Shown piece after piece: positions 9,935 through 12,466 of a stretch of 19,987 bases of DNA. The stretch spans positions 1-19,987 of the IMG/VR virus record IMGVR_UViG_2541047875_000009; one strand, given 5' to 3'. The position numbers and the translations under genes are program-made. The stretch's first letter is position 1. Every line of letters starts with the position of its first letter. The DNA is from a virus (lineage: Duplodnaviria; Heunggongvirae; Uroviricota; Caudoviricetes). The notes beneath the pieces are model-generated. The model ran no database searches. It was not told where the DNA came from and saw nothing but the letters and a program-made list of their open reading frames with translations.

Positions 9935-12466
9935 ATGCCAGTCGTACCAACAGTATCCGGACGCCAGGTTGAGAGCCGTGGAGTTCAGTCAGCAGGCTTG
10001 CAGACGTTTTCTCAGCCAGATATTGGTGATGCTTTTGTTCGGGCAGGGACAGAGGCAATTGATGTTCTTGGTCAGGCAAAACAGCGCGCCAATATTGCCT
10101 TGGTTCAGGAGGCATCCCTTAAACTCAGTCAGACAGGCAGTGATCTGCTGAATAATCCTGAAACAGGATTGCTTAACTTGAAAGGGAAAAATGCTATTGG
10201 AAAAGGCCATGAGTATACACAGCAGTTTGATGCTCAGATCGAACAACTGGCTATGTCGCTGCCGGATGAACAGGCTCGTAATGCTTTCATGCAGCAGGCG
10301 CAGCAGCAGCGTATTCAGTTCGCTACGCAGGCCGGGAGGTACGAGATAGGGCAAATAAATGCCTACGAAGAAGGCCAGTTTCAGGCGACACTGCTGAATA
10401 ATGGTAAAAATGCCTCAGCATTATATGGCGACAACGCAGCATACATATTGGCTAATACGCAAACTTTCCAGCAAATTGAGGATTACGGTATTGCGCATGG
10501 CTGGAGCGACGAGCAAATCCAGGCCAAGAAAATCGAGTTTAAAGAAGCAACAGCAAAAGCAACTGCTCAAAATGCTATTGGAGCAAACTATCTTCAGGTA
10601 AGACAGCAAAATGGCGAGTTAAGCGATACTGCTGCTGGATCTCGCCGTGCTGTAGCAGATAGTGGCTCTTCCGATCGTACCCGCGGTATACGCAACAATA
10701 ACCCCGGCAATCTTGAATACAGCAAAACTAATCCGTGGGTTGGGCAGACTGGTGATGATGGTCGCTTTGCCAAATTCGAAACCCCTGAACACGGTATTCG
10801 CGCGCTTGGTCGCAATTTGCTGTCGTATCAGCGTCAGGGTTATGACACCATCAGCGAAATAATTAATCGCTGGGCACCGGCCAGTGATGATAATAAAACT
10901 GATGCTTATATACGGGCAGTATGTGCTCAGCTCGGTGTAACTCCTGACCAGCCGCTTGACGCATCAAATCCTGACACACTGAAATCTCTGTGCAAAGCAA
11001 TTATTCATCATGAGCAAGGCAGTCAGCCGTACAGTGATCAGCAATTGGCCGCTGGCGTTAGTGCCGCACTGGGGCTTTCTCAGCTACCGACAAAAAATAA
11101 ACGTTATACCGGTGTAGCCTGGTTCGATGCTTTAAGTGAATCAGATCAGGCCAGCGTGTTGCGACAGACGGATGCATTAGCCAGACAGCAGCAGGCTGAA
11201 TATAGAACGATGCTCGAAAGCCGGGTTCGCGATGCAACGGCTGCGTATATGCGTGGCGTTGAATTTCCTAACCCGCCTGGTGAGGGTGAGTTCATTGCTG
11301 CTTATGGTGTCAGAGAAGGAAACCTGCGATATACCGAGTTCAGAAATTTGCAGATCGCCGGACAGTATATAGGCTCTTTCCGCAACATGCCGACAAGCAG
11401 CATTACCGCATATGTTGAGCAATTACGCCCGGATACTGGTGAGACAGGGGAGGGGTATGCGTCTCGTGCGGAGTTATTCGACCGGGTATCGGCGGCAGCC
11501 ACGAAGGTAATAACCCAGAGGCAGAATAATCCGTTTAGTGCAGCGGTGGAAATCGGAGCCTATAAGCCGATCACCAGCAACAACCCTGACGACATCACTG
11601 CCGAGGTGGCTAACCGTTTCTCGTCGCAGGAAAGCTTACGCGCGTTGGGAATTAATGCCCCACTCCTCAACAGTGAAGAGGCGGCTGCGCTGGCACAGCA
11701 GGTGCGCGGCACTCAGAACGTTGACCAGACAATTAAACTGTTGCAGAGCATGGGGGAGAAGCTGCCTGCGCCAGCAATACGGCAGGTGGCATCTGTAATT
11801 GCTCCGAACAGTGCGGCAACAGCCTATTCTGCGCTGCTGCTGGGCACGCCGGATAACCAGTACGACAACACCAGGCCGACGATCCCATATAGTCAGTTCA
11901 TCGGGTATAAGCCGACGATGAACAAGTACGACGTTGCAAAGGTTATTCTTTCCGGCGACCAACTACTGAATCCGACGAAGGCCATGAAGAATGCGGGCAT
12001 AACTCCGGTACAGTTGCCGAGCGAAGATAAGATGAAAGACGCTTTCGACGAACAGGTAGGTAATGCATTTGCCCGTAACCCGCAGTTACGCCAGATCAGT
12101 TATAGCCTTTTCAAAGCCGCTTACGCAGGAATAGCTTATCAATCTGGTGATGCCTCTACGGTAAGAACCAGTATGCCTGATACAGACATTGTAGCTGATG
12201 CCGTGAAGTATGCTACTGGCGGTATATACAATGGTTTTAATGGCGGCGACGTTGTAATGCCTTTTGGCATGGATAAATCTACTTTCAAAGATCGCTATAC
12301 CACATCTGCGAAACAAGCACTGAAAGATGCCGGACTTAACGTAAATGCAGTGTCAAATTTCACGCCAGTTAATATCGGCAATAACCGGTATCGGCTTGTA
12401 AATGGTAGCGGACGCTGGGCAACAGATCCCAGAACCAATAAAGCTATTGTCGTGAGGGTTGAATAA
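9935..12466 (+). CDS. large uncharacterised protein A (843 aa): Q/A-rich helical N-terminus and a central domain with an RGIRNNNPGNLEY motif
   Basis: Long ORF with AGGGGG RBS (9921-9926). No Walker or nuclease motifs seen. Composition rich in A/Q/G/S/T/N, reminiscent of phage internal virion, ejection or tape-measure proteins. Its stop overlaps the next start (TAATG). Confidence 0.8.
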   Translation: MPVVPTVSGRQVESRGVQSAGLQTFSQPDIGDAFVRAGTEAIDVLGQAKQRANIALVQEASLKLSQTGSDLLNNPETGLLNLKGKNAIGKGHEYTQQFDAQIEQLAMSLPDEQARNAFMQQAQQQRIQFATQAGRYEIGQINAYEEGQFQATLLNNGKNASALYGDNAAYILANTQTFQQIEDYGIAHGWSDEQIQAKKIEFKEATAKATAQNAIGANYLQVRQQNGELSDTAAGSRRAVADSGSSDRTRGIRNNNPGNLEYSKTNPWVGQTGDDGRFAKFETPEHGIRALGRNLLSYQRQGYDTISEIINRWAPASDDNKTDAYIRAVCAQLGVTPDQPLDASNPDTLKSLCKAIIHHEQGSQPYSDQQLAAGVSAALGLSQLPTKNKRYTGVAWFDALSESDQASVLRQTDALARQQQAEYRTMLESRVRDATAAYMRGVEFPNPPGEGEFIAAYGVREGNLRYTEFRNLQIAGQYIGSFRNMPTSSITAYVEQLRPDTGETGEGYASRAELFDRVSAAATKVITQRQNNPFSAAVEIGAYKPITSNNPDDITAEVANRFSSQESLRALGINAPLLNSEEAAALAQQVRGTQNVDQTIKLLQSMGEKLPAPAIRQVASVIAPNSAATAYSALLLGTPDNQYDNTRPTIPYSQFIGYKPTMNKYDVAKVILSGDQLLNPTKAMKNAGITPVQLPSEDKMKDAFDEQVGNAFARNPQLRQISYSLFKAAYAGIAYQSGDASTVRTSMPDTDIVADAVKYATGGIYNGFNGGDVVMPFGMDKSTFKDRYTTSAKQALKDAGLNVNAVSNFTPVNIGNNRYRLVNGSGRWATDPRTNKAIVVRVE

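Follow-up and report, generated by a model that had tools for sequence, protein, structure and literature searches.

A putative Enc34-type cell wall-degrading domain in an epsilon15 gp15-like ejection protein encoded on a satellite-like genomic island

What does a compact segment opening with an RGIRNNNPGN motif do in the middle of a long phage-type protein, and what is the gene for that protein doing in a small genomic island? In the window (the whole 19,987-nt stretch of viral DNA analyzed here), the flagged sequence is read in frame +2 within an open reading frame (ORF) of 843 aa at 9935..12466, which places R250 from nt 10682, NNPGN at aa 255 to 259, and the end of an RWAP motif at aa 315. 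RefSeq labels the protein "hypothetical," and scans of its whole length returned no Pfam match at E ≤ 1 and no NCBIfam match, because neither library has a model for the domain family described below. The gene and the features within it are as follows.

9935..12466, + strand: epsilon15 gp15-type ejection (internal virion) protein gene, 843 aa (PHROG 992, E=5e-290), carrying the domain
9935..10678, + strand: N-terminal A/Q-rich module, aa 1 to 248 (composition; PHROGs 19141 at aa 1 to 249 and 36437 at aa 1 to 226)
10682..11074, + strand: putative Enc34-type (PHA02564/PM2 P5-like) muralytic domain, aa 250 to 380
10682..10711, + strand: RGIRNNNPGN signature, aa 250 to 259 (near-invariant in the homologue alignment; secondary structure from the model)
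10871..10873, + strand: W313, counterpart of Enc34 Trp79 (alignment; role per PMC8943055)
10907..10909, + strand: Y325, counterpart of Enc34 Tyr95 (alignment; role per PMC8943055)
11012..11014, + strand: E360, counterpart of the proposed catalytic Glu131 of Enc34 (alignment; role per PMC8943055)
11015..11017, + strand: Q361, an allele-specific replacement of a nearly invariant Asn beside the putative catalytic Glu (homologue and orthologue alignments)

The first-pass annotation, made from the sequence alone, had singled out 10680 to 11040 (aa 249 to 369) as a discrete globular domain in an otherwise low-complexity, Q/A-rich protein. The description of the surroundings goes too far: A and Q are abundant in the N-terminal 245 aa (14.3% A, 13.1% Q), but Q is not in the C-terminal 473 aa. 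Shannon entropy in 40-residue windows stays between 3.3 and 3.9 bits along the whole protein, which is taken to be the usual range for ordinary protein sequence, and both flanks of the domain are conserved PHROGs modules. The domain itself was borne out by structure prediction, with a confident AF2 model (pLDDT 88.5, pTM 0.82) that is not disordered and comprises six helices in an all-helical fold like the α-lobe of lysozyme. RGIRNNNPGN makes up short helix 1 and the first part of the long loop that leads to helix 2. Conservation and the model put the domain at aa 250 to about 380, with its last helix some 35 nt past the proposed end. At E ≤ 1e-3, 2033 database proteins match aa 240 to 403, and in an alignment of the query with 120 of these homologues and two PDB sequences, R250, G251, R253, N254, N255, N256, P257, G258, and N259 are each kept in at least 109 of the 114 to 117 sequences covering the position. 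The motif is also near-invariant in 12 gp15 orthologues from other genera; its suggested role as a signature is upheld, and non-conservation was not found. We regard aa 250 to 380 as a confirmed discrete globular domain, with RGIRNNNPGN as its near-invariant signature rather than a chance pattern.

To which family does the domain belong? A Foldseek search with the model found 7q47 at E=6e-11, with no GH23 structure among the top fold matches. In the PDB, phmmer aligned query residues 248 to 368 with residues 6 to 140 of 7q47_A (E=1.8e-16) and identified 9vvp_L as the closest solved sequence (E=4.2e-39, ~60% identity over 150 aa); the fold libraries were searched without 9VVP. PDB 7Q47 is the crystal structure of the ORF39 domain of phage Enc34 (Cernooka et al. 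2022), which has measured muralytic activity and lyses outer-membrane-permeabilized E. coli, P. aeruginosa, and H. alvei, the activity on Gram-negative peptidoglycan having been measured with Enc34 ORF39deltaC only (PMC8943055). Glu131, Trp79, and Tyr95 of Enc34 superpose on catalytic residues of GH73 and GH23 enzymes (PMC8943055; PDB chain numbering is +1 relative to that paper). These residues align with E360, W313, and Y325 of the window protein. The W313 position is W in 118 of 123 sequences and Y in the other 5, Y325 is Y in 123/123, and E360 is E in 120/120; going by a 1.5 Å superposition with 7Q47, the three would cluster in space. The earlier suggestion of a possibly enzymatic or ligand-binding domain, left without a family name, finds likely support in its enzymatic part, through homology to a muralytic domain and the presence of the W/Y/E counterparts; it missed that the family is known and structurally solved. 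The domain itself, of the phage Enc34 endolysin type, is ordinary.

Position 361 is N in 117 of the 120 homologues, as it is in epsilon15, phiV10, BUCT554, two other island alleles, and 12 orthologues, and Q in the window allele. Lying directly beside the putative catalytic Glu, Q361 could reduce the activity of this allele. One could therefore suppose that the window protein keeps the Enc34 fold while being catalytically weak or dead, with a domain that binds peptidoglycan or has a purely structural part in the ejection protein; a Leu at the Trp313 position in the K. pneumoniae L020 orthologue likewise indicates that the site tolerates some change. We give this a low probability, given that E360, W313, Y325, and the whole of RGIRNNNPGN are intact, that N to Q is a conservative change, and that the gp15-type gene is under purifying selection, with dN/dS of 0.16 to 0.27 among island alleles (0.06 to 0.09 versus epsilon15 and BUCT554).

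The protein that carries the domain is an orthologue of a known virion protein. It is 79% identical to epsilon15 gp15 over its full length and 64% identical to phiV10 p18 over aa 1 to 784, and its gene is followed by gp16- and gp17-type genes in the same order as in epsilon15.

12466..14526, + strand: epsilon15 gp16-type gene, 686 aa, second in the cassette (PHROG 1145)
14526..17282, + strand: epsilon15 gp17-type gene, 918 aa from the ATG at 14526, third in the cassette (PHROG 684, "virion structural protein"; RefSeq start in the identical copy)
17282..17596, + strand: small ORF of 104 aa with one hydrophobic segment at the epsilon15 gp18 position (hydropathy, position), with no family match

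The gp16-type protein matches epsilon15 gp16 at 83% in its N-terminal part and 74% in its C-terminal part around a divergent middle, and the gp17-type protein is 89% identical to epsilon15 gp17. The gp15-type gene is mosaic, its first 1527 nt being phiV10-like (85 to 92% nucleotide identity) and the remainder closer to epsilon15 and BUCT554, and all examined copies are intact. The first-pass annotation missed the orthology to epsilon15 gp15, which already carries the GenBank label "putative lytic transglycosylase." In PMC12391199 (citing Guichard 2013), gp15 and gp17/16 are placed in the epsilon15 packaging/injection device; no enzymatic test of any Uetakevirus gp15 was found in the literature. 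The domain occurs in ejection proteins elsewhere. Gp29 of PDB 9VVP (1295 aa) is at least 99% identical by tblastn to the gp16-equivalent of T7-like Kayfunavirus phages, annotated as "internal virion protein D / DNA ejectosome component." No paper was found for this entry, and the PhiXacm4-11 preprint was rejected as its source, "gp29" there being an unrelated adaptor protein. The domain is matched by 826 phage records; among the 60 listed, about 15 are T7-like genomes of ~37 to 40 kb, and the T7-like matches among those listed are annotated as "internal virion protein with endolysin domain," "internal virion protein D," or "peptidoglycan transglycosylase."

Many members of the domain family are stand-alone proteins of ~140 aa or lysis-cassette endolysins, and the domain might accordingly be thought to serve at the end of the infection cycle, when it would free the progeny from inside the cell as in Enc34, chi-like, and DMS3-like phages, instead of acting at entry. 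At this locus such a role is extremely improbable. The domain is internal to an 843-aa virion-protein orthologue in a gp15-gp17 cassette with no adjoining holin or spanin. A Kyte-Doolittle scan found no 19-residue window with a mean of at least 1.6 and no signal peptide, membrane anchor, or SAR segment, and a hydropathy scan of the gp15-, gp16-, and gp17-type proteins found no transmembrane-like segment. Moreover, PMC12391199 characterizes a separate endolysin, LysSA05, for epsilon15.

The GenBank label raises the question of whether the domain could be of the SLT type. E. coli prophage AF10 and S. electus encode, at the same gene position, a protein with the same N-terminal module of ~235 aa followed by an SLT domain (in AF10, PF01464 at aa 233 to 339, E=1.6e-17). 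The same Pfam search that detects SLT in the AF10 and EcCIMP1 proteins gave no SLT profile (PF01464) match with its E-S motif in the 843-aa protein, whose BLASTP similarity to the SLT variants stops at aa ~235 to 250. A clean domain swap was partly rejected as a description of this pattern: beyond the N-terminal ~235 aa that they have in common with the 843-aa protein, the SLT variants differ throughout and not in the lytic domain alone. The occurrence of either an Enc34-type or an SLT domain after a shared N-terminal module amounts to a natural experiment and suggests that ejection proteins can use either of them for the same function. On the present evidence, the peptidoglycan-degrading part of Uetakevirus gp15 belongs in the Enc34 structural family and not with SLT, which shifts the expected chemistry from that of a lytic transglycosylase to that of a hydrolase with E360 as the proposed catalytic residue. 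The bond cleaved is unsettled even across the Enc34-type family, with data on M4Lys that suggested glucosaminidase and endopeptidase activity (PMC8943055) set against the GenBank transglycosylase label; by analogy with Enc34 and M4Lys, we would expect the window protein to be an N-acetylglucosaminidase.

We therefore propose, as very probable, that aa 250 to 380 form an Enc34-type peptidoglycan glycosidase within an ejection protein, opening the cell wall during DNA ejection. At infection, the gp15-type protein would leave the capsid through the tail, and, since it has no signal peptide or membrane anchor, would reach the periplasm by ejection. There, with RGIRNNNPGN as helix 1 and the start of a long loop over the substrate groove, the domain could cut a local hole in the murein, which may let DNA pass through a trans-envelope channel assembled together with the gp16- and gp17-type proteins. 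Making a murein hole for DNA entry is the job of the SLT domain of T7 gp16, a protein for which Moak and Molineux reportedly described a conditional defect. That the window copy is catalytically active, is incorporated into virions, and acts at this moment is what we infer. Because the island has no head or tail genes, incorporation of the gp15-type protein into virions would depend on a helper phage. As for the domain itself, little is at stake beyond filling the annotation gap left by the RefSeq label and the missing Pfam and NCBIfam models, and the island context may matter more.

More unusual is the setting of the gene, in a small satellite-like island and not in a full prophage. The island sits between yicC and dinD, as an insert of 19.1 kb relative to the empty yicC-dinD site, and its left part carries the following genes.

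1..1269, + strand: tyrosine integrase at the left end of the island (PHROG 1; RefSeq annotation)
2388..2606, + strand: AlpA-family regulator (Pfam PF05930, 26.4 bits versus a cut-off of 21)
5572..7698, + strand: DUF927 primase (Pfam PF06048, E=1e-46; 62% identity to the EcCIMP1 primase)

Head, tail, and terminase families gave no match within the 19-kb insert. The integrase-AlpA-primase order, a size of ~10 to 20 kb, and the lack of capsid, tail, and terminase genes give the island the gene content of an EcCIMP1-like PICI. A pair of 24-bp direct repeats was rejected as the att core: when a synthetic empty-site junction was constructed from it, real empty sites matched over only 70% of the junction's length, and in the alignment to NCTC86 the insert runs ~70 to 110 nt past each repeat. 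EcCIMP1 is a phage-inducible chromosomal island of E. coli MP1 that is mobilized by the P22-like phage Kapi1 (Pick et al. 2025, PMC11773190), and helper-dependent excision, replication, and packaging were described for EcCIMP1 with Kapi1 (PMC11773190).

With no head, tail, or terminase genes, and with a BRO-N gene holding an internal stop and a frameshifted PerC gene in the identical RefSeq copy, the insert could be taken for a decaying prophage remnant whose domain is a relic without current function. This we judge very improbable. In the divergent copies examined, each of the three large cassette genes is intact and has the same length throughout, the cassette is present over at least 80% of its length in at least 49 genomes, and dN/dS is 0.02 to 0.28 among island alleles. 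The backbone is that of the validated satellite EcCIMP1 and not of Uetakevirus, and the same primase-plus-cassette arrangement is found in a Pectobacterium genome. A different use of the cassette is conceivable, in which the island gp15-17 proteins co-assemble into an incoming or resident epsilon15-like phage, whose particles they would poison (interference or superinfection exclusion); the lytic domain would then be incidental. Satellites commonly interfere with their helpers, and the island alleles are mosaic relative to phage alleles; nevertheless, this use appears unlikely, because purifying selection has conserved both the catalytic residues and the entire cassette, as it would in working ejection proteins, and PADLOC matched no defense-system model to the cassette or to the island's unassigned ORFs.

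Our own reading of the island is tentative and falls just short of an even chance: the window would hold a functional EcCIMP1-type satellite in which the "packaging-module" slot is filled by a complete, helper-matched ejection cassette. The authors of the EcCIMP1 study reported three genes similar to "DNA transfer proteins" and suggested a packaging role for them; the idea of a satellite-encoded ejectosome was not developed there (PMC11773190). If the satellite reading is true, this lineage of elements would steal heads and tails while bringing its own DNA-delivery machinery and cell-wall enzyme, and the type of cassette would indicate the helper, which in this case would be a Uetakevirus. Should ejectosome cassettes matched to the helper prove to be general among EcCIMP1-like islands, they would form a new category of satellite structural genes and could allow helpers to be predicted from sequence.

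Among known systems, the SLT (GH23) domain of T7 gp16 and the SLT-bearing proteins at the gp15 position have the same inferred job, that of a virion-borne murein cutter. They belong to a different sequence family from the window domain; relative to GH23, the helix order of the Enc34 type is permuted and the β-lobe is absent (PMC8943055), and its chemistry may be hydrolysis rather than lytic transglycosylation. The endolysin ORF39 of Hafnia phage Enc34 (PHA02564; homologue M4Lys of Salmonella phage BSPM4) contains the same domain family as aa 250 to 380, but is a 26-kDa lysis-cassette protein with a C-terminal two-helix membrane domain, whereas the window domain is internal to an 843-aa virion/ejection protein with no membrane segment and reads HEQG instead of HENG. 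The same family includes P5 of corticovirus PM2, which superposes on 7Q47 with equivalent W, Y, and E residues, and its homologues in Vinavirales and Autolykiviridae; viruses with P5-type proteins are tailless and membrane-containing, and P5 is a small protein. The similarity to P5 had already been remarked by the annotators of phiV10. In Gp29 of 9VVP, as in the window protein, the domain is part of an ejection protein of a short-tailed phage; there it occupies the extreme N-terminus of a gp16-type protein whose remainder is unrelated to the 843-aa protein. The orthologues epsilon15 gp15 and phiV10 p18 (genus Uetakevirus) have the same gp16/gp17 neighbors, but their genes follow the tail genes gp11-gp14 in complete phage genomes of 39 to 40 kb, whereas the window gene comes after the replication genes of a 19-kb island. 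EcCIMP1 shares the island backbone (integrase, AlpA, AntA/AntB at 75% identity, DUF4222, Icd-like, DUF927 primase at 62%, and PerC) and a size of ~19 to 20 kb, and likewise has a podovirus ejection cassette, including a murein-cutting domain, downstream of its primase. The EcCIMP1 cassette is of the P22 type (DUF2824, gp7-like, gp20-like, and a 905-aa protein with an N-terminal SLT) in an island at tRNA-Thr, whereas the window island carries an epsilon15-type cassette with an Enc34-type domain at yicC-dinD.

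The compact central domain with an RNNNPGNLEY signature that the first-pass annotation had placed at positions 10680-11040 lies within a single open reading frame, in which the sequence quoted for it was found exactly:

9935..12466, plus strand, gp15-type open reading frame of 843 aa (ORF list)

The interval corresponds to aa 249-369 of this protein, with the R250 codon starting at nt 10682, NNPGN at aa 255-259, and RWAP ending at aa 315. The description of the rest of the protein as low-complexity and Q/A-rich holds for the first 245 aa (Ala, 14.3%; Gln, 13.1%) but fails for the C-terminal 473 aa, which are not Gln-rich. 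Entropy is 3.3 to 3.9 bits along the whole protein (40-residue windows), conserved PHROG families match both flanks of the domain, and a hydropathy scan found no hydrophobic segment fit for a signal or anchor. With aa 240-403 as the query, 2,033 proteins were matched at E ≤ 1e-3, many of them stand-alone proteins of ~140 aa, named "structural protein P5" in some sources. In an alignment of the best 120 of these matches with two PDB sequences, every listed position of R-G-x-R-N-N-N-P-G-N was kept in at least 109 of the 114 to 117 sequences covering it. Strong conservation across the 120 homologs spans aa 250 to ~379, so the domain ends ~35 nt past position 11040. An AlphaFold2 model built from a 64-sequence alignment was confident (mean pLDDT, 88.5; pTM, 0.82) and comprises a short helix at RGIR and a long loop with a small hairpin, followed by five more helices. 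The stretch is thus neither predicted to be disordered nor poor in motif conservation, and the original guess of a discrete enzymatic domain was right.

The first-pass annotation could not name the family because scans of the gp15-type protein against Pfam and NCBIfam give no match. Comparison with solved structures, through sequence and the predicted fold, identifies the domain as Enc34 endolysin-type:

Query residues 249-403: PDB 9vvp_L, "Gp29," 1295 aa (phmmer E = 4.2e-39)
Query residues 248-368: PDB 7q47_A, catalytic domain of the Hafnia phage Enc34 endolysin (phmmer E = 1.8e-16)

7Q47 was also the only significant Foldseek match of the model (E = 6e-11; TM, 0.72 to 0.75). The family is already known, with a crystal structure and measured activity for the Enc34 domain, which belongs to NCBI family PHA02564 and lysed outer membrane-permeabilized E. 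coli, P. aeruginosa, and H. alvei (Cernooka et al. 2022, PMC8943055). Enc34 Glu131, Trp79, and Tyr95 superpose on catalytic and substrate-positioning residues of GH73 and GH23 enzymes, and the authors concluded that PHA02564 members are probably β-N-acetylglucosaminidases (PMC8943055). Their counterparts here are E360, W313, and Y325, kept in 120/120, 118/123, and 123/123 aligned sequences, respectively; numbering in the PDB chain is that of PMC8943055 plus 1, a shift consistent for all three residues. Structural protein P5 of PM2 and its Vinavirales relatives also belong to the Enc34-type family, as does a domain of a type VI secretion effector. For the window copy, we infer both the activity and the bond that it would cleave.

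Directly after the catalytic Glu, the window protein has Q361 (window 11015-11017), giving HEQG versus HENG. Position 361 is Asn in 117/120 homologs; Asn is found in epsilon15, phiV10, BUCT554, two other island alleles, and 12/12 orthologs from other genera. Among the sequences compared, Gln361 is confined to the window allele and the identical copy in strain MS 196-1. This substitution, sitting beside the catalytic residue, is the main reason to keep alive the alternative that the domain is weakened or inactive in the window allele.

We consider it most likely that the domain serves as a peptidoglycan glycosidase carried in the virion. Once the phage has adsorbed, the gp15-type protein would exit the capsid through the tail, and its domain would make a local cut in the murein, allowing the ejection channel to cross the periplasm; we infer its virion incorporation and its timing of action. 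A parallel is the SLT domain of T7 gp16 (role reviewed in PMC8954989). The gp15-type protein is closely orthologous to epsilon15 gp15, a Salmonella phage protein that already has an annotation (79% identity over 843 residues), and synteny extends to the next two genes, with 74-83% identity to epsilon15 gp16 and 89% to epsilon15 gp17. The GenBank label of epsilon15 gp15, "putative lytic transglycosylase," is based on an HHpred match to SltB, and the phiV10 annotators remarked on similarity to PM2 P5. According to a passage of PMC12391199 citing Guichard 2013, the packaging/injection device of epsilon15 includes gp15 and gp17/16. E. coli AF10 has a phiV10-like prophage whose gene at the gp15 position (L009:9001-11622) encodes a protein with its N-terminal ~235 residues in common with the window protein, the first 140 being nearly identical. 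In place of the Enc34-type domain found at aa 250-380 of the window protein, it then carries the Pfam SLT domain PF01464 at aa 233-339 (E = 1.6e-17). Superficieibacter electus (L023:10001-12694) provides a second SLT variant at the gp15 position. Because SLT replaces the Enc34-type domain in these two relatives, the comparison lends direct support to a murein-cutting role, although the swap is not clean, since regions downstream of the lytic domain differ too.

The gp15-type gene is mosaic, divided between window 9935-11461 and 11462-12466. Its first 1,527 nt share 85-92% nucleotide identity with phiV10-like phages and prophages, at which point the match stops, and full-length nucleotide similarity (~75%) extends only to BUCT554 and epsilon15-type phages. 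The SLT variants share a further breakpoint, which lies at nt 419 of the gene (window ~10353). Synonymous divergence among island alleles is 0.08 to 0.24 in gp15 and ~0.03 in gp16 and gp17. The gp16-type protein matches epsilon15 gp16 at its ends only (83% and 74% identity), with no counterpart there for the ~200 residues in its center (aa ~280-480, window 13300-13900); it is 52 aa longer than epsilon15 gp16, and its BUCT554 homolog is 164 aa shorter. The gp17-type gene starts at GTG 14505 in the mechanical ORF list, overlapping the end of gp16; its RefSeq start, ATG 14526, aligns with epsilon15 gp17 from residue 1.

By tblastn, the domain occurs in 826 phage records; it is present, for instance, in endolysins of chi-like siphoviruses, in Pseudomonas phages that are DMS3-like or Mu-like, in small Vibrio phage records (10 to 15 kb), and in one Microviridae record. 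T7-like genomes make up ~15 of the 60 matches listed among the 826, the matches falling in genes labeled "internal virion protein with endolysin domain," "internal virion protein D," or "peptidoglycan transglycosylase." This T7-like group includes the 9VVP protein: over its aligned segment it shows at least 99% identity to the T7 gp16 equivalent of Kayfunavirus, whose genes are labeled "DNA ejectosome component" or "internal virion protein D."

The window is not an epsilon15-type prophage, and the surrounding island is a more interesting object than the domain. Phage similarity begins exactly at the gp15-type start codon and stops past the gp17-type gene. The part upstream of it encodes a tyrosine integrase, AlpA (PF05930), AntA/AntB and BRO-N antirepressors, an Icd-like protein, DUF4222, a DUF927 primase, SSB, ProQ/FinO, and a frameshifted PerC. 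The window holds no head, tail, or terminase genes, and the gp15/gp16/gp17 cassette provides the only virion genes of the island. Compared with the empty site in E. coli NCTC86, the insert measures ~19.1 kb between yicC and dinD, running from ~187 nt before the window start to window ~18931. The BRO-N gene (window 3498-4797) has an internal stop in the identical RefSeq copy and in the window is apparently split into ORFs 3498-3914 and 3895-4797; the PerC regulator gene (~9274-9499) is frameshifted in the same RefSeq copy. In other island alleles the BRO gene is intact and the region holds another set of genes, Rha and a GIY-YIG nuclease among them.

Two kinds of repeats were seen in the island. 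The 11-mer TTGCGGGTTAT occurs four times: once at window 7721-7740, just past the DUF927 primase gene and with an overlapping GCGGGTTAT, and three times at 18300-18357, in an array at 21-nt spacing near the right end. These copies may serve as iterons, as an origin, or as a packaging signal. Near both island ends lie imperfect 24-bp direct repeats, CGTGTACATA(GA/AG)GGTGTACATAAT, each holding GTGTACATA twice:

57-80 nt upstream of window position 1 (L003:11920-11943): left 24-bp repeat
18840-18863: right 24-bp repeat

As they lie ~70 to 110 nt inside the insert boundaries, the 24-bp repeats were rejected as core att sites; they may instead bind a recombinase or an excisionase.

The cassette has been maintained. 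It is present over at least 80% of its length in at least 49/5,426 complete E. coli genomes, is intact in the divergent copies examined, where its genes also have identical lengths, and shows purifying selection among island alleles (dN/dS of 0.16 to 0.27 for gp15, 0.02 to 0.05 for gp16, and 0.07 to 0.28 for gp17). In Pectobacterium zantedeschiae 9M (L019:1636-17798), a DUF927 primase, 60% identical to that of the window, and SSB are followed downstream by gp15/gp16/gp17 homologs, with no portal, capsid, or tail genes within the 10 kb upstream, which suggests that the same island type also exists outside Escherichia. In twelve other species representatives, gp15-17 homologs sit in complete prophages.

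The island backbone is PICI-like and matches that of EcCIMP1 (AntA/AntB, 75% identity; DUF927 primase, 62%), a 20-kb island shown by experiment to be excised and transduced by the P22-like phage Kapi1 (PMC11773190). The slot downstream of the primase is filled by a P22-type ejection cassette in EcCIMP1 and by an epsilon15-type one in the window island. The EcCIMP1 cassette encodes a DUF2824 protein with 83% identity to Kapi1_055, a gp7-like protein with 57% identity to Kapi1_056, a "phage DNA ejection protein," and a protein of 905 aa that bears an SLT domain at its N terminus. Three EcCIMP1 genes were described as similar to "DNA transfer proteins," for which the authors proposed a packaging role (PMC11773190). 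One idea raised by the two islands is that this satellite lineage may carry ejection machinery matched to its helpers.
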